From the sequence record AP018932: a stretch of DNA of 64,000 bases. One strand, given 5' to 3'. Shown here piece after piece: positions 6,661 through 63,989 of the stretch (positions are counted from its first letter, which is position 1; every line of letters begins with the position of its first letter). The translations under genes and the position numbers were made by a program. The notes beneath the pieces are model-generated. The model saw only the letters and a program-made list of their open reading frames with translations, made no database searches and was not told the origin of the DNA. Source of the DNA: Escherichia phage KIT03.

Positions 6661-8169
6661 ATGGATATTAAAGTACATTTTCACGACTTCAGTCATGTAC
6701 GCATCGATTGTGAAGAGAGCACGTTCCACGAATTAAGAGATTTCTTTTCGTTTGAGGCCGATGGATATAGATTTAACCCTCGCTTCAGATATGGCAACTG
6801 GGATGGACGAATCCGTCTTTTAGATTATAATCGCCTTCTTCCATTCGGCTTAGTCGGGCAAATTAAAAAGTTCTGTGATAACTTTGGCTATAAAGCCTGG
6901 ATTGACCCACAAATTAACGAAAAAGAAGAATTATCAAGAAAAGATTTTGATGAATGGCTTTCTAAATTAGAAATCTATTCAGGAAATAAAAGAATTGAAC
7001 CACACTGGTATCAAAAAGATGCAGTGTTCGAAGGATTAGTTAATCGTCGTAGAATTCTTAATCTTCCAACATCTGCAGGTAAATCTTTAATTCAGGCTCT
7101 GCTTGCGCGATATTATTTGGAAAATTATGAAGGTAAAATTCTTATCATTGTTCCAACAACTGCTCTGACAACTCAGATGGCTGATGACTTCGTTGACTAT
7201 CGTTTATTCAGTCATGCAATGATAAAGAAAATTGGCGGCGGAGCATCAAAAGATGATAAATATAAAAATGATGCACCAGTCGTTGTTGGTACATGGCAAA
7301 CTGTAGTTAAACAACCAAAAGAATGGTTCTCACAGTTTGGAATGATGATGAATGATGAATGCCATCTTGCTACAGGAAAAAGTATTTCATCTATCATATC
7401 AGGTTTAAATAACTGCATGTTCAAATTTGGTCTATCTGGTTCATTACGTGACGGCAAAGCCAATATCATGCAGTATGTTGGAATGTTTGGCGAAATATTT
7501 AAGCCAGTAACGACTTCTAAATTAATGGAAGATGGGCAAGTAACTGAGCTAAAAATTAATAGTATTTTTCTTCGTTATCCTGATGAGTTCACTACTAAAT
7601 TAAAGGGAAAAACTTATCAAGAAGAAATAAAAATTATTACGGGGCTTAGTAAAAGAAATAAATGGATCGCTAAATTAGCTATTAAGCTTGCGCAGAAAGA
7701 TGAAAACGCTTTTGTCATGTTTAAACATGTATCGCACGGTAAAGCTATTTTCGATTTAATTAAAAATGAATACGATAAAGTTTATTACGTATCAGGGGAA
7801 GTTGATACCGAAACACGCAATATAATGAAAACCTTAGCTGAAAATGGTAAAGGAATAATTATAGTAGCTAGTTATGGTGTATTTTCTACTGGTATTTCAG
7901 TTAAAAATCTGCATCACGTTGTTTTAGCACACGGTGTTAAATCAAAAATCATTGTATTACAAACAATCGGTCGTGTATTACGTAAGCATGGTTCTAAGAC
8001 AATAGCAACAGTCTGGGACCTCATAGATGATTGTGGTGTTAAGCCAAAATCTGCTAATACGAAAAAGAAATATGTTCATTTGAACTATCTTTTAAAACAC
8101 GGCATTGATCGTATTCAGCGCTACGCAGATGAAAAATTCAATTACGTAATGAAAACAGTTAATTTATAA
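6661..8169 (+). CDS. uvsW: UvsW SF2 DNA/RNA helicase
   Basis: 502-aa ORF with helicase motifs (LPTSAGKS Walker A, DECH box). Confidence 0.95.
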   Translation: MDIKVHFHDFSHVRIDCEESTFHELRDFFSFEADGYRFNPRFRYGNWDGRIRLLDYNRLLPFGLVGQIKKFCDNFGYKAWIDPQINEKEELSRKDFDEWLSKLEIYSGNKRIEPHWYQKDAVFEGLVNRRRILNLPTSAGKSLIQALLARYYLENYEGKILIIVPTTALTTQMADDFVDYRLFSHAMIKKIGGGASKDDKYKNDAPVVVGTWQTVVKQPKEWFSQFGMMMNDECHLATGKSISSIISGLNNCMFKFGLSGSLRDGKANIMQYVGMFGEIFKPVTTSKLMEDGQVTELKINSIFLRYPDEFTTKLKGKTYQEEIKIITGLSKRNKWIAKLAIKLAQKDENAFVMFKHVSHGKAIFDLIKNEYDKVYYVSGEVDTETRNIMKTLAENGKGIIIVASYGVFSTGISVKNLHHVVLAHGVKSKIIVLQTIGRVLRKHGSKTIATVWDLIDDCGVKPKSANTKKKYVHLNYLLKHGIDRIQRYADEKFNYVMKTVNL

Positions 8170-29825: not shown

Positions 29826-31029
<1,204 letters not shown>

Positions 31030-31906: not shown

Positions 31907-32400
31907 AAAGTTTTAATAACCTCTATAATATCGTCTTGAGAAAGACCGTTAATTAAAATATGATGTTCAGCTGGAGATTTAGAAATTTTAAAGCATGCCT
32001 CAACATCTTCTGCCATATCCGATGCACTACGATTTGGATTACTAATACCAAGGCGGTGTTTTCCCGTCAAAGGATTAACGATGATATAGCATTTACAGCT
32101 ATTGATATGAACATTAGGTTGAGTCTGATTAATGAACACTTCACAATCATACTTAGCGAGTTGATTTTCTAAAAAGACTTTCATCTCCTCAACCGCATCA
32201 GGAAGCATATCACGGGCTTGCTCAAGACGACGATTTCGATATTCTTTAATGGTCGTTTTCCGCTTGACTTGTTTAGCTAAATCTTTCTTAAGATCAGTGA
32301 TATATCCAACTCGACGATTTCCTTTGAATACAGAAATCCCATCTGTAGTATCACCGTATGCTTCAACGACCATTTCAGTAGTAATAAGTTGTAAATCCAT
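31897..32400 (-). CDS. alc: Alc, host transcription elongation inhibitor
   Basis: 167/168-aa ORF recognised as Alc, immediately downstream of an early promoter. Confidence 0.85.
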   Translation of the reverse strand: MDLQLITTEMVVEAYGDTTDGISVFKGNRRVGYITDLKKDLAKQVKRKTTIKEYRNRRLEQARDMLPDAVEEMKVFLENQLAKYDCEVFINQTQPNVHINSCKCYIIVNPLTGKHRLGISNPNRSASDMAEDVEACFKISKSPAEHHILINGLSQDDIIEVIKTLCN

Positions 32401-32464: not shown

Positions 32465-34052
<1,588 letters not shown>

Positions 34053-35309: not shown

Positions 35310-37574
35310 TCATAATTTACAGGATGAACAATCTTCAGCTTTTGGAGTTTCTATTTCATAATCATCAGTACCAGAACCGTCACGGGTATTATGATAATAG
35401 AAATTTTTTCCGCCAAAATACCAAAAATACAAAAGGTCATCAATCATTATTGACATTGGAACCTTGCCTTTAGGGAAGATTTGGGGGTCATAGTATGTAT
35501 TCGCCGAAGCTGATTGACAAACCCATTTCAGCATAATAGCTACCTGTGTAAGATAAGGTTTATTACCTTTCTTAGCTAATTTCCATGTATAGTCGTAAAG
35601 GTCTATGTTATGCTCAATATTGGGCACGACCTGATTAAAGGAGCCCTCTTTTGATTCTTTAACAGAGACTGGTCCACGTGGAGGCTCGATACCGTTTGTA
35701 CTGTTAGAAACTTGGGAAGATGACTCACATGGCATAAGTGCTGATAATGTGCTATTACGGATGCCAAAGAGCTTAAGGTCTTCCCGCAGCGCCGACCAGT
35801 CACAAACGTATTTTGGAGCTGCGATTTGGTCAATCTTTTTATTGTACCAGTCGATAGGTAATTCGCCTCGAGACCAACGAGTGTCTGAATAATATTCGCA
35901 AGGTCCTTTTTCTTTGGCGAGTTTAATGGATGCTTTAATGAGTCCATACTGTAATCTCTCAAATAGTTCATGTGTTAAATCGTTAGCATCTTCATAAGAA
36001 GCAAAGTTACTTGCCAACCAAGCTGCATAGTTAGTAACACCTACACCGAGGTTACGACGCTTTTTAGCTTTTTCTGCTTCAGGAACTGGATATCCTTGGT
36101 AATCCAAAAGATTATCAAGAGCACGAACCTGGACTTCTGCCAATTCATTAATTTTATCTTGGTCTTGCCAGTCAAAATTATCCAGTACGAATGCAGAGAG
36201 AGTACACAATCCAATTTCAGCATCAGGACTATTCACATCATTTGTTGGAATAGCAATTTCACAGCACAAGTTACTCTGACGAATAGGTGCCTTTTCACGA
36301 ATAAACGGAGTATAGTTATTCGTATTATCAGTGAACTGTACATAAATCCTTGCTGTTCCTGAGCGTTCAGTCATGAGCAATTCAAATAGTTCACGAGCTT
36401 TAATACGCTTTTTACGAATATTAGGGTCTTTTTCTGCGGCTTCATACAATTCACGGAAACGGTCTTGGTCTTTAAAATAAGAATAATAAAGCTCTCCGCC
36501 CATTTCATGGGGACTGAACAAAGTAATGTAATCGTTCTTTCCAAAACGTTCCATCATCAAATCATTCAGTTGAACACCATAATCCATATGACGAATGCGG
36601 TTTTCTTCTACGCCTTTGTTATTTTTCAAAACAAGAAGATTTTCAACTTCCAAATGCCAAATAGGATAATAAGCAGTAGCAGCGCCGCCACGAATTCCAC
36701 CCTGTGAGCATGATTTAACAGCAGTCTGAAAATGTTTCCAAAAAGGAATAACACCAGTATGGCGTACTTCACCCATGCCAATCTTAGAACCTTCAGCACG
36801 AATCATACCAACGTTAATACCAATTCCAGCGCGTTTAGAGATATATTCAACAATTGAAGCGGAAGCCTTATTGATAGACTTTAATGAATCACCTGCCTCA
36901 ATAACAACGCATGAACTAAACTGCCGGGTTGGAGTACGGCAACCAGCCATAATAGGAGTTGGCAATGAAATCTGTCGAGTAGATACTGCTTCATAAAAAC
37001 GGATAACGTGTTTTAATCTATCAACAGGTTCATCTTGATGCAATGCCATTCCAATAGTCATAAATGCAAACTGTGGAGTTTCATAAATTTGACCAGTGGT
37101 TTTATCTTTAACTAGATATTTTTCTTTTAATTGCATCGCCCCGGAATAAGTAAATTCCATATCCCGCTCGTGCTTAATTTTTGATTCTAAAAATGTAATT
37201 TCTTCTGCAGAATATTTTGACAACAATTCAGGGTCGTATTTACCTTCATTTACACAGTAAGAAATATGGTCAATAAATGAACGTGGTTCATACTGCCCAT
37301 AAACATGCTTACGAAGAGCAAACATTAAACAGCGTGCAGCTACATATTGATAATCAGGTTCTTCAACCGAAATAGAATTCGCAGCGGCCTTAATGACAAT
37401 AGTCTGAATATCATCAGTTGTCATTCCATCACGGAGATAAGATTTAATATTTTCATATAATTCATAAGGATCTACTGATGTTCCTTCAGCTGCCCAAGAT
37501 AAAACTTTAATAATTTTTTGTGGGTCAAAGCTCTGAGAAACACCACTACTTTTGATAACATTAATTAATTGCAT
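35310..37574 (-). CDS. nrdA: ribonucleotide reductase large subunit NrdA
   Basis: 754-aa ORF with active-site NLCCEI/SNLC-type and C-terminal CSSCKL motifs. Confidence 0.96.
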   Translation of the reverse strand: MQLINVIKSSGVSQSFDPQKIIKVLSWAAEGTSVDPYELYENIKSYLRDGMTTDDIQTIVIKAAANSISVEEPDYQYVAARCLMFALRKHVYGQYEPRSFIDHISYCVNEGKYDPELLSKYSAEEITFLESKIKHERDMEFTYSGAMQLKEKYLVKDKTTGQIYETPQFAFMTIGMALHQDEPVDRLKHVIRFYEAVSTRQISLPTPIMAGCRTPTRQFSSCVVIEAGDSLKSINKASASIVEYISKRAGIGINVGMIRAEGSKIGMGEVRHTGVIPFWKHFQTAVKSCSQGGIRGGAATAYYPIWHLEVENLLVLKNNKGVEENRIRHMDYGVQLNDLMMERFGKNDYITLFSPHEMGGELYYSYFKDQDRFRELYEAAEKDPNIRKKRIKARELFELLMTERSGTARIYVQFTDNTNNYTPFIREKAPIRQSNLCCEIAIPTNDVNSPDAEIGLCTLSAFVLDNFDWQDQDKINELAEVQVRALDNLLDYQGYPVPEAEKAKKRRNLGVGVTNYAAWLASNFASYEDANDLTHELFERLQYGLIKASIKLAKEKGPCEYYSDTRWSRGELPIDWYNKKIDQIAAPKYVCDWSALREDLKLFGIRNSTLSALMPCESSSQVSNSTNGIEPPRGPVSVKESKEGSFNQVVPNIEHNIDLYDYTWKLAKKGNKPYLTQVAIMLKWVCQSASANTYYDPQIFPKGKVPMSIMIDDLLYFWYFGGKNFYYHNTRDGSGTDDYEIETPKAEDCSSCKL

Positions 37575-56796: not shown

Positions 56797-57257
56797 TAGT
56801 AAAGGTCCTCAGAGTAAAGTTCTTTTTCACTACCACCACGTTCAATACGTACTTGTCCAGCGTAAGTTGCAATAATCATTGCTTCTTCACGTGTCCAATA
56901 ATTACTGTATTGGTCAATAAACCCTTGGTCATCATCACAAACTTGTTGAGTAACTAATTGAGGTTTAACTACATCTAAAACTTCTGCCATATCTTTAGAA
57001 TAATGACGAGCACCTGGAATAACGAGAGTTCGTCCATCTTTTAATTTAAAACGGTTGGCTGCGCAAACAATTCGTCGTTGATACTTTTGGTTTTCATCCC
57101 AGTATGCAGTCTGCCAACAGATTTCAGGAACTTCTTTCAGAATATCTTCTTCTGTGCATTTATAACCATGCGCTTTAAATTTTTGAACAAGACTCTCCGG
57201 AGTCTCACGAGATAAAGGCACATTCAGCATTTTTAAACGATTAATAAATGAGTTCAT
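56796..57257 (-). CDS. hypothetical protein
   Basis: 153-aa ORF. Confidence 0.65.
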
Positions 57258-57583
57258 TTAAACCATCCTTTAATACGTTGCCACAAAGTTTTCTGTTGAG
57301 CTTTGTTAACACCAATTGAGCGAATAACCGGTTGAGATTCCTGGAATTCTTTATAATCAGCAAGGTAAATTTCGTAAGCTGCATCCGTAAATGAACTTAT
57401 CGCTGCCATAAAATTATTACGAATACCTACTGGAGCATCTTTACTTTCACGAATAATCATGTATTTACCAGTCTTAATCTTTACGATAGTTCCAAGATAA
57501 GCTCCATGATACCAGATGTCCCAACCCTCTTGGGTAGGTTCTGCACAACGACGAAGTTCATTAACAATTTCTAACTTGTTCAT
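57254..57583 (-). CDS. hypothetical protein
   Basis: 109-aa ORF. Confidence 0.65.
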
Positions 57584-57593
57584 TATTTATTCC

Positions 57594-58229
57594 TCACAGT
57601 TCAGATGCTACAGTGATTACTGCTTCAATGTTTTCTGCCGAACGTTTAATGTCAAGATACACATTACCGTTTTTAGCGATTTTACAAGACATTCCGATAT
57701 CGGTAAATTTCTGAATATGATGTTCCATCATTTTGTATCCAAAAATTCGCATGTTTCCATTATTGTTAATTTCAAAATTGCGAATTCCGTGAGTGCGTTT
57801 TTCTAAAATAGCAAGATAGTTACTGCGGTAAGTTTCAACCTTTTTAAGAACAAATCCATTTTCATCTAAAAGTTTTAACATGAGGTCTTTATCTTCTTCC
57901 ATATCGGAAGTAATCTCACGAGCTTTACGAGTTGCTCGTTTTTTCAGTAGTTCCGGAGCATTTTCCTGCGCGTATAAAGTTGCTGCATTTGAAATAATAT
58001 CTTGAGCTTCACCAGTAATGATTAATCCATCACCAGATTTCTCTACCAGGCCTTTTTTAATCAATACACCAATATTACTATTAACTACTGCATTACCTAA
58101 ATCTGGATGCACCTCACGAACTTCTGCAGCTGTAATGAAATCTTTCTTAGCAATAGTAATTAAAATCGCAGCAGTTTTTTCATTCAAAACATCGTTAGAA
58201 GCTTTGATGATGTAAGTTACTTTAGACAT
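57594..58229 (-). CDS. motA: middle transcription activator MotA
   Basis: 211-aa ORF recognised as MotA. Confidence 0.95.
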   Translation of the reverse strand: MSKVTYIIKASNDVLNEKTAAILITIAKKDFITAAEVREVHPDLGNAVVNSNIGVLIKKGLVEKSGDGLIITGEAQDIISNAATLYAQENAPELLKKRATRKAREITSDMEEDKDLMLKLLDENGFVLKKVETYRSNYLAILEKRTHGIRNFEINNNGNMRIFGYKMMEHHIQKFTDIGMSCKIAKNGNVYLDIKRSAENIEAVITVASEL

Positions 58230-58270
58230 TTTCTAATCTCCGTAATTCTGTATCAGTAGTTGATAGTTGT

Positions 58271-58300
58271 ATAGTACCACAGTATGCTTTGGTTGTAAAC
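58271..58300 (-). promoter_or_regulatory. T4-type early promoter for motA (GTTTAC, 18 bp spacer, TACTAT)
   Basis: gtaaac at 58295..58300 and atagta at 58271..58276. Confidence 0.6.
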
Positions 58301-58315
58301 CGTTTTGTGAAAAAA

Positions 58316-58354
58316 TTTTTGAAATAAAAAAAGGGGAGAGCCGAGGCTCTCCCC
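58316..58354 (-). terminator. hairpin terminator upstream of motA promoter
   Basis: GGGGAGAGCC...GGCTCTCCCC stem followed by U-rich tract on the - strand. Confidence 0.6.
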
Positions 58355-58359
58355 AAAAA

Positions 58360-58509
58360 TTACTGCATGACTGTGATAACTGTCATGATAACACGTTGAA
58401 TGCCGAACGCAAGAAGACCTCCTGCTACGGCTGGAACAACACCTACCCCCGCTAGTAAAATGCCGCCAGATACTAATGCTGCGCTTGTAATACCTATAAA
58501 TGGACTCAT
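58360..58509 (-). CDS. small hydrophobic membrane peptide (49 aa)
   Basis: MSPFIGITSAALVSGGILLAGVGVVPAVAGGLLAFGIQRVIMTVITVMQ; ATG overlaps gene 52 stop (ATGA). Confidence 0.55.
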   Translation of the reverse strand: MSPFIGITSAALVSGGILLAGVGVVPAVAGGLLAFGIQRVIMTVITVMQ

Positions 58510-59834
58510 TTGATTTCCTCTAAATCTTTGGTGTATTCTGTAACTACATCAGTAGTTTTCCAGTATTCGTTTTCTTCTTTTTTAGCTTTAGCTTCTTCAG
58601 CAAGTTTCTTTGCTTCATCAGAAGTCATATGAAAAATATTCATTCCAACCAGTTTATCAACATAAGAAGAATACATATCAATTTTAGAAAGTTCTTCGGT
58701 CAGTTCTTTACGAGTTTTACCTTGAACAACAATTTCACCTGAAATTACTTTCTTAATGAAATGTGACTTGGCAAAGGCTAAACGAAAAGCTGACTCAGTT
58801 TCTTTGATTTTGTTATCAATTCGTTTTTGGACATAAGTTTTACGAACTTCAACAAAGTCTTTAATTAAATCGACTACGTTATCGTAAACTTGTAGTTTTC
58901 CTTTCTCATTAATAACCGTAATATTCTGAGAACGACGCTCAATCAACCCGAAGTCTTTCATAATTTTTGCATGGCGTTCTTCTTCATTATCGCTCAAAGA
59001 ATATTCTTTACGGAATTTAACTTTAAAGCCAAACCCGTGCTCACCACAAGCATCATCCCATGTAATGAAGCCTTTATCTTCAAGTGGGTCTAAGATTTTA
59101 CTCACATAAGTTTCACGATCATACTTATACGGAATCTCAGTGATATGCATTTGAGTTCGTGAAGTAAACTTGTATGTTCCACGAATTTCATATTGACCGT
59201 CAATTTCAACGACTTCACCACGAAATTCTGGGAATTCTACCTTCGGTTTAATTACTTTCTTTCCTTGAAGAGCTTGTAATACAGCTTTCTTGACAGAAGA
59301 AACGCTATGAGGAAGAATGTAAGTTGCATAACCAGTTGCAATACCGGAAACACCATTAAGAAGAACGGTAGGAATAATAGGCAAATAGAAAGCAGGCGGA
59401 ATGTGTTCTTTATCTTGATGTACCGGAGCATATTCAGTATCTTTATATACGTTATAGAAATTTTTACTTACACGAGCAAAAATATAACGACTTGCCGCTG
59501 CTTTTTGAACGGTACGAGAACCAAAGTTTCCTTGACCATCTAACAGAGGAAAGTTATTGTTCCAAGTATTCGCCATCAAAGCACCTGCATCTTGTGCAGA
59601 GTTTTCGCCATGATGATATCCAAGGTCCGCTACACCACCTGCAATAGAAGCGAGTTTGTGAAACTTATCTTTATTTCCTCGTGCCAAATCAAGAGCTCGA
59701 GCAATAACAAATCGTTGAACTGGCTTAAATCCATCAATCATATTTGGAATAGCACGATTTTCAACCGTGTACATAGCATAAGCCAATGCTTCATTATCAA
59801 TGATACTTTTTAAATCGCGATTATTCAGTTGCAT
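58506..59834 (-). CDS. 52: DNA topoisomerase II medium subunit gp52
   Basis: 442-aa ORF recognised as gp52. Confidence 0.96.
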   Translation of the reverse strand: MQLNNRDLKSIIDNEALAYAMYTVENRAIPNMIDGFKPVQRFVIARALDLARGNKDKFHKLASIAGGVADLGYHHGENSAQDAGALMANTWNNNFPLLDGQGNFGSRTVQKAAASRYIFARVSKNFYNVYKDTEYAPVHQDKEHIPPAFYLPIIPTVLLNGVSGIATGYATYILPHSVSSVKKAVLQALQGKKVIKPKVEFPEFRGEVVEIDGQYEIRGTYKFTSRTQMHITEIPYKYDRETYVSKILDPLEDKGFITWDDACGEHGFGFKVKFRKEYSLSDNEEERHAKIMKDFGLIERRSQNITVINEKGKLQVYDNVVDLIKDFVEVRKTYVQKRIDNKIKETESAFRLAFAKSHFIKKVISGEIVVQGKTRKELTEELSKIDMYSSYVDKLVGMNIFHMTSDEAKKLAEEAKAKKEENEYWKTTDVVTEYTKDLEEIK

Positions 59835-59838
59835 AAAT

Positions 59839-59979
59839 TTACCATACTAGTGAATGTAGTGCCATAATAACATCAGAAATGAAAAGCACGACTTGAATTA
59901 ATCCGAACATTACTCCATAATATAACGCTATCAATAAAATAGCAAGGGCTAATGAATAGCCCAAGATTTTCTTAATCAT
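59839..59979 (-). CDS. small hydrophobic membrane peptide (46 aa)
   Basis: MIKKILGYSLALAILLIALYYGVMFGLIQVVLFISDVIMALHSLVW; start overlaps the upstream ORF stop. Confidence 0.5.
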   Translation of the reverse strand: MIKKILGYSLALAILLIALYYGVMFGLIQVVLFISDVIMALHSLVW

Positions 59980-60133
59980 CTTTAATCATCTTAAGTAAGC
60001 CAACAGAAGTAGAAAGCACCCAGCCAATAAACAGAAAACTTAAGAATACTGAACCTGGGGTCCACACGCCTAAAAAGAAGCAAACCGAACAGACAATAGC
60101 CGTAATAAGTTCAATAAAAACCAGAATAACCAT
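59972..60133 (-). CDS. ac: small hydrophobic membrane peptide (53 aa), probable Ac (acriflavine sensitivity)
   Basis: MVILVFIELITAIVCSVCFFLGVWTPGSVFLSFLFIGWVLSTSVGLLKMIKDD; position next to stp. Confidence 0.5.
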   Translation of the reverse strand: MVILVFIELITAIVCSVCFFLGVWTPGSVFLSFLFIGWVLSTSVGLLKMIKDD

Positions 60134-60140
60134 GTTTTCC

Positions 60141-60221
60141 TCACTGGCGTCCGAAGACGCCTTTGGTTTTAAGATTGTTACGATAGAACTGCATCACATG
60201 TTCGTTATGGAAATTACTCAT
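60141..60221 (-). CDS. stp: Stp peptide (26 aa), activator of host PrrC anticodon nuclease
   Basis: encodes [26 protein letters not shown]; ATG overlaps ndd stop. Confidence 0.85.
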
Positions 60222-60679
60222 TAGTATGCCTGTAAAACAAATTTAAAGTTATCAGCCAACATACGGTTCATTTCTTCAAGTGTTTGATACTCAGAATGAT
60301 GATTACGAGTAAACGCTAAAGCTAACTGTCCTTTTCCAAATCCCGTCGTCAGAGGTTTCATCTTAGAAGCAGGCAGATAAAATACTGTGTATGGAACATT
60401 GTTATTTGCAATAGTACGCGCAAGCTGAGACCGGCGTTGACGAATATGACTTAGAACTGCGCTGAATCCTTGCTTAGAACGCTGATTACCTACATAAAAT
60501 CGTGCAGACACACATGGATTACTAAATGGACGACCATCTAATTTACTCACTAAAAAGTAAAATCCAGGTTTAGATAAAATGTCTTTATGTGGAGTTCCCA
60601 AAAACCACTCACCGCCCTTGATTGTACCAATAACAGTAGCGCCCGCATTATTCAGATCAGTAACAGTCATATATTTCAT
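60221..60679 (-). CDS. ndd: nucleoid disruption protein Ndd
   Basis: 151 codons from [13 protein letters not shown]; the tracked ORF has a 16-codon extension. Confidence 0.9.
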
Positions 60680-60739
60680 ATTAATTTCCTCTAAATTATT
60701 TTCTACTCCAAGGCCGCATGAATACACGCGGCAATTAAA

Positions 60740-60955
60740 TTAATCGTCGCAGTCGACGCTCAATTCCCAAAACTCTTCTACGGTATAAGTTTCAGTATCA
60801 TTTTCAATACAGAAACGTTCATTACTGTTATTTGCTAAAGTAGCATTAACTGTCGGTTTCTCGCCAGTGCTCTTAAGAGGTGAAATACGAATTAACTGAT
60901 CACCATTATCTAAACAGAAAATTTCACCAACTTTTACATCTTTAAAACTTTTCAT
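60740..60955 (-). CDS. ndd.1: hypothetical protein
   Basis: 71-aa ORF. Confidence 0.6.
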   Translation of the reverse strand: MKSFKDVKVGEIFCLDNGDQLIRISPLKSTGEKPTVNATLANNSNERFCIENDTETYTVEEFWELSVDCDD

Positions 60956-61070
60956 AATTCACCTCAAGGAGTATAAAATCCGAATGCAGTTGTTGACCAT
61001 CCCATCCAATATGGAAAATTTGCACCAATGTAAAACATAAGAATATAAAACCAAATGTTTAGTAAATTCA

Positions 61071-61289
61071 TTATTTTACACCATTCCAAATTGTTTCAAC
61101 TACGGATTTTAAACCATTTTGATGAATATCCATTCCGACTACCGCCATCAAATAGATTCCAACTACAACTGAACCTAAGGCAAAAATCAGCATGAAAATG
61201 AATAAAGCCGGAAAAATATTATCGAAAAACCATTCAATAAATGTAAAAGCACTGCGTTTACGCTTCATATTTTCCTCACATAAATCCAA
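61071..61289 (-). CDS. hypothetical membrane protein
   Basis: 72-aa ORF with two hydrophobic segments. Confidence 0.6.
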   Translation of the reverse strand: MDLCEENMKRKRSAFTFIEWFFDNIFPALFIFMLIFALGSVVVGIYLMAVVGMDIHQNGLKSVVETIWNGVK

Positions 61290-61389
61290 AGTAAACGTTT
61301 AATACATCAATCATTAAAACGATTGGGAATATACTCAAAACTATTAGTATTATAACTACATTCCATATAGCTTTAATAATCTTTTTCAT
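61276..61389 (-). CDS. small hydrophobic peptide (37 aa)
   Basis: MKKIIKAIWNVVIILIVLSIFPIVLMIDVLNVYFGFM with GGAGGA RBS; the tracked ORF extension covers the promoter. Confidence 0.5.
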   Translation of the reverse strand: MKKIIKAIWNVVIILIVLSIFPIVLMIDVLNVYFGFM

Positions 61390-61417
61390 TTTCTGTTCCT
61401 CCGTAGTTGATAGAGTA

Positions 61418-61447
61418 ATAATACCACAGAGGAACAGTCTTGTAAAC
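61418..61447 (-). promoter_or_regulatory. T4-type early promoter (GTTTAC, 18 bp spacer, TATTAT)
   Basis: gtaaac at 61442..61447 and ataata at 61418..61423. Confidence 0.55.
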
Positions 61448-61631
61448 AACTTTTTAAAAATATTCGTAATAAATGTGAATACCAATCACTACTGCCGAAA
61501 CTTGTGCAACCCACCACGCACAAGCAATAAGTACAGAATTAAAAATTTTCATAATAACCTCATCACAAAAGTAAATGTTAAACAAATTACTGGAATACTA
61601 ATTAACCAAACAAAACACCACCATAGTGAAC

Positions 61632-61895
61632 TCATAGCTCAATCTCAGCGATTTTCATTTCATTACTATTAATAGCCGCTTTAAGACTATCTGAAAGAAT
61701 TACATTCCAATGGTCATTCATATGACCACTAACTAAGCGTGTAATTTCTTCAGGAGTTGAAAAATAAGGCTGATCAGACTCCCAATGCGATAGTCCCAAG
61801 CGAGTATAAATCATACCTTCATCATCGCTAGAATATTCAACTGACACAAACTCATCAGTTATTTTATGTTTAGCGTAATAAAATTTAAATTTCAT
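61632..61895 (-). CDS. hypothetical protein (87 aa)
   Basis: start MKFKFYYAKHK with GGAGGAG RBS; the tracked ORF 5' extension spans the promoter element. Confidence 0.6.
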   Translation of the reverse strand: MKFKFYYAKHKITDEFVSVEYSSDDEGMIYTRLGLSHWESDQPYFSTPEEITRLVSGHMNDHWNVILSDSLKAAINSNEMKIAEIEL

Positions 61896-61923
61896 TTTCC
61901 GCTCCTCCGTAGTTGATAGTTGT

Positions 61924-61953
61924 ATAGTACCACGATCCTTGTGGTATGTAAAC
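61924..61953 (-). promoter_or_regulatory. T4-type early promoter (GTTTAC, 18 bp spacer, TACTAT)
   Basis: third copy of the gatagttgtatagtacca...gtaaaccgttttgtgaaaa module. Confidence 0.55.
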
Positions 61954-61969
61954 CGTTTTGTGAAAATTT

Positions 61970-62527
61970 TTAAATGGAAAGATACCATCCGTTGTAGTTG
62001 CTTTTTCTTACAACCTTACGAAGGTCTTCTCTATCACCGATGAACTTCGGAGTGTACTGGATGACACCTGGATGAATTTCTTTAGTGTTGAATATAATTA
62101 TACAGTCCGCGACTTGATGATTTAGAATGGGCCCTAGATTTATTCCAGAACCATATGGATACTCTCCGCTGCATCCCGTTGTTACCGAAATCCAACGCGA
62201 GTCAGTTTGATGTGTCTTAACTTCTACACGGAGCCCACAGTATTTTGGATGTGCTAAAACATCCCATGCATACGTGTACGGATCATCGACATCTTCTTGG
62301 CCTTTATTGACATATCCGCTTAGCCAATCTGCCACCACATACTCGGCATACACTGCGATACGGCATCTTTCGATAACTTCTGCCTTATCCTGATTTGGGT
62401 TTTGTTTTAAAGAGTATCTCGCAGTATCAGCAATTTTGACCTTCATTTCACTGGTCAAGTCACCGTTCGATAGGGTAAATGTCGGAATCTGAAATAGTCT
62501 CTGTAGCCCCGGATTCGTTTTCTGCAT
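61970..62527 (-). CDS. denB: endonuclease IV (DenB)
   Basis: 185-aa ORF, size and position match DenB. Confidence 0.8.
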   Translation of the reverse strand: MQKTNPGLQRLFQIPTFTLSNGDLTSEMKVKIADTARYSLKQNPNQDKAEVIERCRIAVYAEYVVADWLSGYVNKGQEDVDDPYTYAWDVLAHPKYCGLRVEVKTHQTDSRWISVTTGCSGEYPYGSGINLGPILNHQVADCIIIFNTKEIHPGVIQYTPKFIGDREDLRKVVRKSNYNGWYLSI

Positions 62528-62789
62528 TTAGACTTTCCTTTTTACCACTAAGATAAGCGTTATACACTTTAAGAGTACCATAGTAAATTCGATCATTTTC
62601 ATCTAAAGAATTATGATCAAGTTCATCGAGATTATTTTTGTCCATGACTATAACATCATTACAGTAAAGAACTCCAAGTTTTTCGTGACCAAACTCTAAT
62701 TTATTACAATACACAATGTTAGCGTGATGATTTCCGTGCAGTTTAATCTCTTTTATGTCGGAATCGCCGATATTCATACAATAAATCAT
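62460..62789 (-). CDS. hypothetical protein
   Basis: 109-aa ORF, 3' end overlaps denB start. Confidence 0.55.
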   Translation of the reverse strand: MIYCMNIGDSDIKEIKLHGNHHANIVYCNKLEFGHEKLGVLYCNDVIVMDKNNLDELDHNSLDENDRIYYGTLKVYNAYLSGKKESLNAENESGATETISDSDIYPIER

Positions 62790-62827
62790 AATTTTTCCTT
62801 AAAACAAAAGGGCCGAAGCCCTTTATT

Positions 62828-63022
62828 TTACTTGAATTGTGCAATTCTTTTCTCTAGACATTCAGCATAAGATTTCATTGAGATGAACTGTGAAAGCAGC
62901 AGTTCTTGCTCAACTACACTAGCCGTTAGAAACTTTGTGCTTTCTAAAAATTTGCTCAGTGCATTAATTTTGAGCATTAATTGATCGTATTCTTCTTTTA
63001 CTCGTGCTTGATAACCTAACAT
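62828..63022 (-). CDS. hypothetical protein
   Basis: 64-aa ORF flanked by two GGGCC-UUCG-GGCCC hairpins. Confidence 0.55.
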   Translation of the reverse strand: MLGYQARVKEEYDQLMLKINALSKFLESTKFLTASVVEQELLLSQFISMKSYAECLEKRIAQFK

Positions 63023-63050
63023 AATTTTCCTTAGTTAAGGGCCGAAGCCC

Positions 63051-63989
63051 TTATTTAAATTGTTCAGTAACGTCTTCAATTACTTCATACTGGCAGGTAC
63101 GCATTTTAGCATCGTTGTAATCAATCGGAATTGATACTACATCGCGAGGATGAACTTTAACTTTTACAACTCGACTAGTTGAACCACCGAAGTGACGAAT
63201 ATAAGATTTAGAACACACATGCAGACCACGAGAACAAGTTTGTGTATCATCGTCATTCACACGAGTACGCGGCATTTTAACTACTTTACCAGGACTGTTA
63301 TCAAAGGTATTTGAGTGACAGTCAAAGTAATTATTGCGAACTACTTTCCAAGCATAGAAGTAACCATCTTCTGTAATTTCAATATCGTTTGCTACCAAGA
63401 AATCAAAAAGTCGAGATACCGCTTTCTGGCTTGGGTTTTCCAGCAGATTTTCCAAGAACGGAAAATAAAATTCAAAGTTTTCGCCTTTTTCCATCGAATC
63501 AAGAATACGATCAACCAAACCAGACCGCAATTCAATATTTTGATAGAATAAGCTTCCACCTTCAATTCGAACATCGCCGGAAATATATTTTTCAACAGCG
63601 CGACGAACATTAATTTTTTGTGCCGCTTCTTCCAGCTTATCCGCTACAAGCAGATTGAGAATTTCCTGGAAGTTTGAATGAGTATTAGGTGTTGCATTAT
63701 AAGTTACACCATCGACAGTAATCGAAATGAATTTTTTAGATGCATTCCAAATAATGTCAGATTTAGTAACTGGAGCAATAACTGCATCGCTATTAACTTT
63801 AACTGTAATATCACCGCTAATAGTAACTTTAGAGCGTTTAGCTTCTTCAGCATTTTTCAAAACACGACGGATTGTATCAACCGATACACCTTGCCAATCA
63901 GCCAATTCCTGCTGAGTATAATTACCGCTTGAATACAGTTTAACAATTTCAGCTTGTTCGTTTTTGGTCAGGCATTTAATATTGTACAT
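63051..63989 (-). CDS. rIIB: rIIB membrane-associated protein
   Basis: 312-aa ORF recognised as rIIB. Confidence 0.93.
   Translation of the reverse strand: MYNIKCLTKNEQAEIVKLYSSGNYTQQELADWQGVSVDTIRRVLKNAEEAKRSKVTISGDITVKVNSDAVIAPVTKSDIIWNASKKFISITVDGVTYNATPNTHSNFQEILNLLVADKLEEAAQKINVRRAVEKYISGDVRIEGGSLFYQNIELRSGLVDRILDSMEKGENFEFYFPFLENLLENPSQKAVSRLFDFLVANDIEITEDGYFYAWKVVRNNYFDCHSNTFDNSPGKVVKMPRTRVNDDDTQTCSRGLHVCSKSYIRHFGGSTSRVVKVKVHPRDVVSIPIDYNDAKMRTCQYEVIEDVTEQFK

Follow-up and report, generated by a model that had tools for sequence, protein, structure and literature searches.

We analyzed a cluster of small genes around gene 52, stp and ndd in a 64,000-nucleotide (nt) stretch of DNA from Escherichia phage KIT03 (sequence record AP018932), referred to here as the window. 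The short open reading frames (ORFs) of this cluster, all located on the - strand, are in all likelihood genuine and long-annotated accessory genes, namely motA.1, 52.1, the gene for the peptide in the ac slot, stp, ndd.2, ndd.2a/3, ndd.4, ndd.5 and ndd.6. The ac slot itself holds an unrelated, Dhakavirus-type two-helix peptide that was swapped in by recombination in the 3' end of stp and the 5' end of 52.1. The cluster as such is already known: its genes are annotated in T4, where they are non-essential and lie in a region of documented plasticity. What is new, to a modest degree, is the replacement of the cassette in the ac slot. All six ORFs listed in the initial annotation, which was made from the sequence alone, are present on the - strand, five of them with exact coordinates and lengths: 58360..58509 (49 amino acids, aa), 59839..59979 (46 aa), 59972..60133 (53 aa), 60141..60221 (26 aa) and 61276..61389 (37 aa). 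The sixth, given as 60961..61071 and 34 aa, was wrong at the 3' end by 3 nt; because the stop codon TGA lies at 60966-60964, this gene, ndd.2, spans 60964..61071 and encodes 35 aa. Five of the six (motA.1, 52.1, stp, ndd.2 and ndd.4) correspond one-to-one to annotated T4 genes, and three more small genes of the same kind, at 61071..61268 (65 aa), 61454..61552 (32 aa) and 61549..61635 (28 aa), had been missed. The initial annotation named gene 52, ac, stp and ndd, but neither recognized the other ORFs as annotated genes of T4 nor mentioned that the block is dispensable.

Escherichia phage AugustSocin (Bas38) and the window share 97.4% identity across the whole of the region 57000-63000, which also resembles more than 400 further Tequatrovirus genomes; on sequence grounds, the source phage is a Tequatrovirus (T4-like), and the region is the denB-to-motA early-gene block. 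The gene order is collinear with that at ~163-168 kb of the T4 genome (motA, motA.1, 52, 52.1, ac, stp, ndd, ndd.1-ndd.6, denB, denB.1, rIIB, all on the - strand), so that the neighborhood of gene 52, stp and ndd in a T4-type phage had been correctly recognized. In T4 (NC_000866, T4p263-T4p275), the order, strand, overlaps and sizes of motA.1, 52.1 and ndd.2-ndd.6 are the same as in the window, and the encoded proteins differ at 0-4 residues (Ndd.6 is identical, and motA.1 and 52.1 show two differences each).

ORF length alone is not above chance in this A+T-rich DNA, which contains, within 6 kb, 89 ORFs of 20 aa or more; most of these are spurious and lie inside or antisense to real genes. 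Other features set the small genes apart. One strand is tiled by small ORFs, leaving only 150 nt of non-coding sequence between 58360 and 61895; every small-gene start is preceded by a GAGG or GGAGG Shine-Dalgarno (SD) sequence or overlaps the preceding stop codon; and every small ORF matches a phage protein family, with E values from 1e-17 to 1e-30. Three of the products score above the curated Pfam cut-off (PF08133, DUF7396 and DUF7248); an NCBIfam scan of ten small proteins yielded no matches. Orthologues with an open frame were identified in 7 to 28 of 41 related loci, among which gp52 identity extends down to ~60%. The ratio of nonsynonymous to synonymous differences over all pairs (pN/pS) is saturated, with pS about 0.5-0.65, and the corresponding substitution-rate ratio of close pairs (dN/dS) was used instead; in the all-pairs analysis, the true frame scored below both shifted frames in every case. 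The close-pair dN/dS values are 0.02 for stp, 0.06 for motA.1, 0.11 for ndd.2a/3, 0.12 for ndd.5, 0.14 for ndd.2 and 0.15 for 52.1, compared to 0.12 and 0.08 for the control genes motA and ndd, respectively; the three remaining small genes, which score higher, are taken up below. Tiling, SD-preceded or coupled starts, family matches and purifying selection together indicate that these are real genes.

The 53-aa ORF at 59972..60133 (-), a member of phrog_9347, had been considered the probable ac gene, an identification that does not hold by homology. The ORF is placed between stp and 52.1 with its 3' end overlapping the start of 52.1, exactly as T4 ac is, and shares with T4 Ac (51 aa, phrog_2501) the size class, the hydrophobicity and a probable two-helix membrane hairpin, but there is no detectable sequence relationship between the two. 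BLASTP produced no alignment to T4 Ac at E<=100, comparison of the family profiles with hhalign gave a probability of 0.3% over 2 columns, and no cross-hit at E<=1 was found between phrog_9347 and phrog_2501, the latter including both T4 Ac and orf256 of phage JS98. No T4-type ac was found elsewhere in the window (best E 0.2). The DNA of the slot is 53% identical to T4 and 92% identical to Dhakavirus JS98, whereas the flanks (stp, 52.1 and gene 52) are 96-97% identical to T4 and 64-85% identical to JS98; for gene 52, the values are 96.9% and 75.2%, respectively. The switch is sharp at the left edge, where the ATG follows the shared GGCGTCTTCGGACGCC..TGAGGAAAA, and at the right edge, where the shared ATGATTAAGAAAATCTTGGG starts 52.1 (boundary ATGATTAAG); the likeness of the C-terminal codons to those of T4 ac comes from the overlap with 52.1, which fixes them. 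From an alignment of 7 sequences, AlphaFold predicts two helices, residues 2-21 and 29-52, on either side of the turn GVWTPGS, with a predicted local distance difference test score (pLDDT) of 74, and the family has a conserved acidic residue (E8) in helix 1.

Phage JS98 (locus L044 of our set, 2118-2800) contains a tandem duplication of the module, in which stp and the Ac-like orf256 are followed by a fusion of a 52.1 fragment with a stp copy truncated at the 5' end, then by the window-type peptide and a full 52.1; this is a footprint of recombination through the stp and 52.1 flanks. This tandem carriage implies that Ac and the window-type peptide are two different genes. The window-type ORF of JS98 (L044 2501-2662) is absent from the annotation of that record. 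Among 50,697 phage records, the window-type peptide is present in 75 and T4 Ac in 460. The 75 are mostly Dhakavirus and Enterobacter/Edwardsiella relatives, with phrog_9347 centered on Dhakavirus (JS98-like) and rare in Tequatrovirus, where AugustSocin and ESh24 are the only carriers among the records inspected. A search of 5.8 billion proteins recovered 6 clusters of this family, those with a named source being from phages and the rest metagenomic, and the names given to relatives go no further than 'putative membrane protein' or 'hypothetical protein'. The Shigella phage ESh24 (L045 2398-2647, an UNVERIFIED record), a Tequatrovirus with the window-type peptide, shows a 1-nt length difference from the window in the stp/ac-slot region, and its annotation fuses both genes into a 57-aa ORF, with no stp called.

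At the stp side of the exchanged segment, a UUCG-tetraloop hairpin, GGCGUC-UUCG-GACGCC (60146..60161, -), lies within the final stp codons (G-V-F-G-R), directly ahead of the SD that serves the ac-slot gene, and marks the left edge of the exchangeable cassette. Its DNA sequence is conserved in both JS98 copies of stp, the truncated one included. As Stp reportedly can do largely without its last 8 residues, conservation at the 3' end of stp may concern the RNA hairpin and not the peptide. We tentatively view the ac slot as a hot-swap locus at which unrelated two-helix peptides are exchanged between T4-like genera via two conserved anchors, the UUCG hairpin with the SD at the stp end and the first codons of 52.1.

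In T4, ac confers acriflavine sensitivity upon infection or expression in E. coli, and Ac has been proposed to block AcrAB-TolC (bioRxiv 10.1101/2025.06.30.662393); by a statement that this preprint gives at second hand, T4 ac belongs to one of three clusters of predicted membrane-protein genes. If the alternative alleles hit different envelope proteins, the swap would alter the drug or efflux sensitivity of the infected cell, or its exclusion properties. The hot-swap reading predicts that KIT03 and Bas38 are naturally acriflavine-resistant; the PNAS 2026 paper contains no acriflavine data for Bas38. The natural polymorphism at the slot offers a ready allele-swap test of the proposed Ac/AcrAB-TolC mechanism, and the label 'acridine resistance protein' on the 53-aa ORF of Bas38-like phages is wrong by homology. 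We consider it less likely that the ac-slot peptide, unrelated as it is to Ac, performs the same job, the two being interchangeable peptides with the same host envelope target. Position, size, early context and two-helix hydrophobic architecture are alike, and the distribution, with 9 loci carrying only the window type, 10 only the T4 type and 2 both, fits substitution of one for the other. However, the two families share no motif, their conserved residues differ (F6, I7, L9, G22, W24 and P26 against W15, T22, V30, Q33 and Q37), and the retention of both genes by two phages argues against redundancy.

Five of the six ORFs initially listed rank within the top 17 of the 376 ATG-initiated ORFs of 20-70 aa in the whole window by grand average of hydropathy (GRAVY), and Stp, with a GRAVY of -1.03, is hydrophilic. 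The Kyte-Doolittle maxima over 17 residues are 2.2-3.4 for motA.1, 52.1, the ac-slot peptide, ndd.2a/3, ndd.4, ndd.5 and ndd.6, borderline for ndd.2 (1.54) and -0.54 for Stp; the first seven are predicted to contain bilayer-spanning hydrophobic segments. The hydrophobicity noted in the initial annotation is therefore real, but the single-pass topology ascribed to most of the six peptides fits at best ndd.2 and ndd.4: the ac-slot peptide is predicted to form a two-helix hairpin, Stp is hydrophilic, and the hydrophobic stretches of motA.1 and 52.1 exceed 35 residues. Outside the six, ndd.5 and ndd.6 also fit a single pass.

The transcription of the cluster can be tentatively outlined. A promoter scan identified an early sigma-70-type promoter, TTTACA N17 TACTAT with TG before the -10 hexamer, at 61924..61952 (-), upstream of a gene for an 87-aa protein, a second early promoter, TTTACA N17 TATTAT, also with TG, at 61418..61446 (-), upstream of ndd.4, and the motA promoter at 58271..58299 (-). 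The three are parts of a repeated promoter/leader cassette of ~85 nt (repeat families D1/D2) in which an A/T-rich stretch precedes TTTACA and, 17 nt further on, TAYTAT with a TG before it is followed by 'ctatcaactac' and GGAGG-ATG; GGAGG or GGAG followed by ATG comes after the promoter in all three copies. The cassette promoters agree with the consensus TTTACW N17 TAYWAT of the promoter-early stem-loop (PeSL) elements of T4 and phage PST (PMC4122927). An intrinsic terminator with a 9-bp G+C-rich stem followed by a T run (58333..58354, -; -21 kcal/mol, z -5.1) closes the unit 5 nt past the motA.1 stop codon. This is the stem-loop directly upstream of the motA copy of the promoter, none comparable being reported at the other two, and the terminator together with the motA promoter appears to make up a PeSL-like unit. 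The two early promoters (61952 and 61446) would feed one leftward unit that passes through ndd, stp, the ac-slot gene, 52.1, gene 52 and motA.1 to the terminator at 58354-58333. The window is thereby similar to the described hyperplastic regions with PeSL cassettes (Arbiol 2010; Comeau 2014, PMC4122927), with three repeated early-promoter/SD cassettes, one of which follows a stem-loop terminator. Exchange of cassettes between T4 and PST has been published for the ndd.4/ndd.5 locus (PMC4122927); in contrast to PeSL-mediated exchange, the edges of the ac slot are not PeSLs but coding sequence, that is, the 3' end of stp with the UUCG hairpin and SD, and the first codons of 52.1. An Rfam scan of 57000-63500 at E<=1 returned just three hits, all far below threshold, and thus no family match.

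Within this unit, the start of motA.1 overlaps the end of gene 52 by 4 nt (ATGA), 52.1 overlaps the ac-slot ORF by 8 nt, and stp and ndd, like ndd.2 and ndd.2a/3, share 1 nt in TAATG. Overlapping start and stop codons, assumed initially for the whole set, were thus found for four of the six ORFs (motA.1, 52.1, stp and ndd.2), whereas gaps of 7 nt set ndd.4 and the ac-slot ORF apart from their neighbors. Because the starts of the small genes sit at good SD sequences or overlap the preceding stop, translational coupling is suggested.

The one small protein in the cluster with a known partner is Stp (60141..60221, -), the hydrophilic 26-aa product of a gene whose start is coupled to the ndd stop (TAATG). 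It shares 26 of 26 residues and its place after ndd with T4 Stp and matches PF08133 (Nuclease_act) with 75.3 bits against a cut-off of 25, over residues 1-26 of 26, which bears out its initial identification. The N-terminal 18 residues are accordingly identical to those of T4, and the first 10 are invariant in 12 related loci; positions beyond residue 10 vary, as in QWHRHNLK of loci L007 and L033. In T4, Stp is both necessary and sufficient for activation of the latent anticodon nuclease, which proceeds via the type IC enzyme EcoprrI, and Stp inhibits restriction by EcoprrI as well as by EcoR124I; the activity resides in the N-terminal 18 residues, with loss-of-function mutations clustered at positions 4-14 (PMC3014915). 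The description of Stp as the known trigger of PrrC was right and can be refined as inhibition of EcoprrI that unmasks PrrC (PMC3014915); the primary role of Stp is anti-restriction. We infer that the Stp of the window likewise inhibits EcoprrI and EcoR124I and activates PrrC: as established for the identical T4 peptide, it would bind the EcoprrI complex, block restriction and release PrrC, the latent tRNA-Lys anticodon nuclease.

The setting of stp in the window differs from that in T4 by a frameshift in the partner repair gene pseT (polynucleotide kinase/3'-phosphatase; 29973-30734, -), with an insertion near 29985. The pseT ORF encodes 253 aa instead of 301, the last 54 residues being in another frame, owing to one extra C (CGCGAACCAGCGCGATACC versus T4 CGCGAACAAG-GCGATACC) that is not in a homopolymer. 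In 12 of the 12 best records listed, 201 bases of the window align to 200, and identity stays below 100% in all 510 matching records; the frameshift may be a sequencing error. If the kinase defect is real, the phage would be self-restricting on prr+ hosts, stp and rnlA (32468-33589) being intact.

As for the hydrophobic peptides, eight of them, of 28-65 residues, would enter the inner membrane within minutes of infection and bind host envelope proteins such as efflux and transport complexes, as proposed for T4 Ac. By analogy, these membrane peptides probably act on host envelope complexes. The suggestion in the initial annotation that the peptides other than Stp modulate membrane transporters or defence sensors has indirect support, in that T4 Ac, which is absent from the window, is proposed to act on AcrAB-TolC. 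Small bacterial membrane proteins that regulate transporters include AcrZ, which acts with AcrB, as well as KdpF, MgtS and SgrT. Like the phage peptides, members of this class are 30-50 residues long and have one or two membrane helices, and they act by binding larger membrane complexes. Such binding is also the working model of the preprint for T4 Ac and AcrAB-TolC, and the cluster peptides resemble this class in architecture. An alternative that we consider unlikely is that the hydrophobic peptides are effectors in the manner of Stp, which counter or trigger defence by acting on membrane immune sensors or superinfecting phages rather than on transporters. Such a role would be compatible with the clustering with stp, near rIIB and denB, with the accessory, patchy distribution in a region of cassette shuffling, and with dispensability on laboratory strains that lack most defences; however, the peptides have no sequence or experimental link to a defence system, and no functional literature was found.

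Data on T4 bear on both expression and importance of these genes. For T4 motA.1, 52.1, ac and stp, the RNA class is 'early' and the protein entry 'NA' (PMC9697503 Table S2), the missing proteins being ascribed by the authors to small size or low expression (PMC9697503). In a dCas13d knock-down, motA.1, 52.1, ac, stp, ndd and ndd.1-ndd.6 were all 'Not Fit', and an effect of the knock-down on fitness ('Fit') was seen for gene 52 alone in this block (PMC11879866 supplementary file 15). The re-created 'GT7-like' T4 deletion of 165,257-168,510 (3,254 bp), which removes 12 genes (ac through denB.1) and parts of 52.1 and rIIB, is viable (PMC9712115). The block is thus dispensable on laboratory hosts, as established for T4. 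Our literature search found no ribosome-profiling data for T4 and no functional study of motA.1, 52.1 or ndd.2-ndd.6, only two mentions in passing. The discovery value is accordingly small, the genes being T4-annotated for decades, located in a plastic region and dispensable in the laboratory, and the KIT03 window adds no special handle on peptide function; they are still fair targets for the study of small proteins.

Several observations weigh against the interpretation of the cluster as a set of co-transcribed genes for membrane peptides directed at the host envelope. The dN/dS values are high for ndd.6 (0.90), ndd.4 (0.56) and the ac-slot peptide (0.46); given this weak constraint, the coding case for these three rests on frame, length, hydrophobic pattern, motifs and family matches. 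There is no direct protein evidence for any of the hydrophobic peptides, T4 proteomics being without motA.1, 52.1, ac and stp. Membrane insertion and topology come from hydropathy and AlphaFold predictions only, and no peptide but Stp has a known partner protein. Finally, 21 promoter-like sites were found compared to 20.5 expected in shuffled sequence, the calls being consensus matches, and only the three repeated cassettes stand out from this background.

The ratios near 1 for ndd.6 and of 0.56 for ndd.4 could also mean that these two ORFs and ndd.2 are leader or spacer frames that pass ribosomes downstream, or annotation artefacts, as T4 ndd.3 genuinely is through a frameshift. The ATGA and TAATG overlaps are typical of coupling, and the T4 peptides have neither been detected as proteins nor shown a knock-down phenotype. 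We nevertheless regard this explanation as improbable: frame, length and hydrophobic pattern are kept over deep divergence, in 27 loci for ndd.4 and 20 for ndd.6, both of which bear motifs; ndd.4 is served by a promoter of its own and by a strong SD; the dN/dS of ndd.2 is 0.14; and short membrane helices are expected to show relaxed residue identity. Least credible of all is that the 53-aa ORF is ac after all and renders infected cells acriflavine-sensitive through efflux block or raised permeability, since the exact slot between stp and 52.1, the similar size (53 versus 51 aa) and predicted two-helix hairpin, and the label 'acridine resistance protein' in AugustSocin, the closest relative, are set against the lack of any relationship by BLASTP, hhalign (0.3%, 2 columns) or PHROG, slot DNA that is unalignable between sharp conserved flanks, and the JS98 tandem, where a true Ac relative (orf256, phrog_2501) stands next to the window-type peptide.

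On the gene 52 side of the cluster, the 46-aa product of 52.1 (59839..59979, -) is hydrophobic and matches DUF7396 (80.1 bits versus 27, residues 1-46 of 46), with orthologues in 28 of 41 loci; its gene overlaps the upstream gene by 8 nt and is followed, after a 4-nt gap, by gene 52 (58506..59834, -), which matches T4 and encodes the 442-aa medium subunit of topoisomerase II. The product of motA.1 (58360..58509, -) is a Gly/Ala-rich hydrophobic protein of 49 aa (phrog_3487, E 2e-30), and the gene has its own SD, GAGGA. An exhaustive HMMER search of 1.84 billion representatives recovered only 3 clusters for motA.1, all of 49 aa, so that there are no remote relatives to hint at function. AlphaFold, run without an alignment, predicts a single 46-residue helix and does not discriminate between one pass and a hairpin.

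On the ndd side, ndd (60221..60679, -) encodes the 152-aa nucleoid disruption protein and is 94% identical to T4 at the nt level. The ndd.1-ndd spacer contains a G+C-rich RNA hairpin, GCCGCGUG-UAUU-CAUGCGGC (60713..60732, -; -15 kcal/mol, z -2.8). The hydrophilic 71-aa product of ndd.1 (60740..60955, -) matches its T4 counterpart, which has been detected as an early protein (PMC9697503 supplementary file 6). The aromatic-rich product of ndd.2 (60964..61071, -; phrog_4135, E 3e-23) lacks a first Met that is present in T4, and its gene shares one base of TAATG with the upstream stop.

Comparison with the window also bears on the T4 reference. The intact 65-aa ndd.2a/ndd.3 gene (61071..61268, -) matches DUF7248 (71.9 bits versus a cut-off of 27, residues 6-63), its product beginning with the basic MKRKRS, continuing with a hydrophobic core (residues 13-49) and ending in a polar tail. 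In the T4 reference, ndd.3 and ndd.2a (L001 6433-6629) are this single 65-aa gene, broken in codon 3 by a deletion of 1 nt; of 493 phage records, 492 have the gene intact, and T4 ndd.3 is a singleton in PHROGs. The 37-aa ndd.4 product (61276..61389, -; phrog_3098, E 5e-21), with one hydrophobic segment and a strong SD, is found in 27 of 41 related loci. T4 ndd.4 is annotated with 42 aa, from an ATG (MEEQKM...; L001 6751-6765) that falls within the SD and is ACG in the window (61390-61404), where the frame is usable only from the inner ATG (MKKII); hence the annotated T4 start is probably 5 codons too early and the product the 37-aa form. The hydrophobic 32-aa ndd.5 product (61454..61552, -; phrog_5011, E 9e-26), whose gene overlaps ndd.6 in ATGA, is restricted to close relatives of T4 (41 related loci). 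Its residues 8-11, L-I-A-C, resemble a lipobox and follow a short basic N-terminus, a feature that is probably the origin of the 'outer membrane protein' label in T4; lipoprotein processing is doubtful because the h-region is very short. The 28-aa hydrophobic ndd.6 product (61549..61635, -; phrog_8851, E 1.6e-17) is identical to that of T4 and keeps the motif W-C-x-x-W...IP-x-x-C in 20 loci; its start overlaps the upstream stop in ATGA.

Between ndd.6 and denB, the window has an additional gene, without a T4 counterpart, for an 87-aa hydrophilic protein (61632..61895, -; phrog_2390), which opens the transcription unit with a strong SD, GGAGG, and has a dN/dS of 0.13. A 109-aa ORF between denB.1 and denB (62460-62789, -) also lacks a T4 counterpart, and both genes are found in AugustSocin too. 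A 16-nt palindrome, AAGGGCCGAAGCCCTT, flanks denB.1 in two identical copies 229 nt apart (62808-62823 and 63037-63052) and forms a UUCG-type hairpin on the - strand. Further short ORFs with GRAVY above 1.6 include 35351-35440, 32067-32150 and 7617-7718 (-), among others, and some of these hydrophobic ORFs outside the block may be additional T4-type genes for small membrane proteins.

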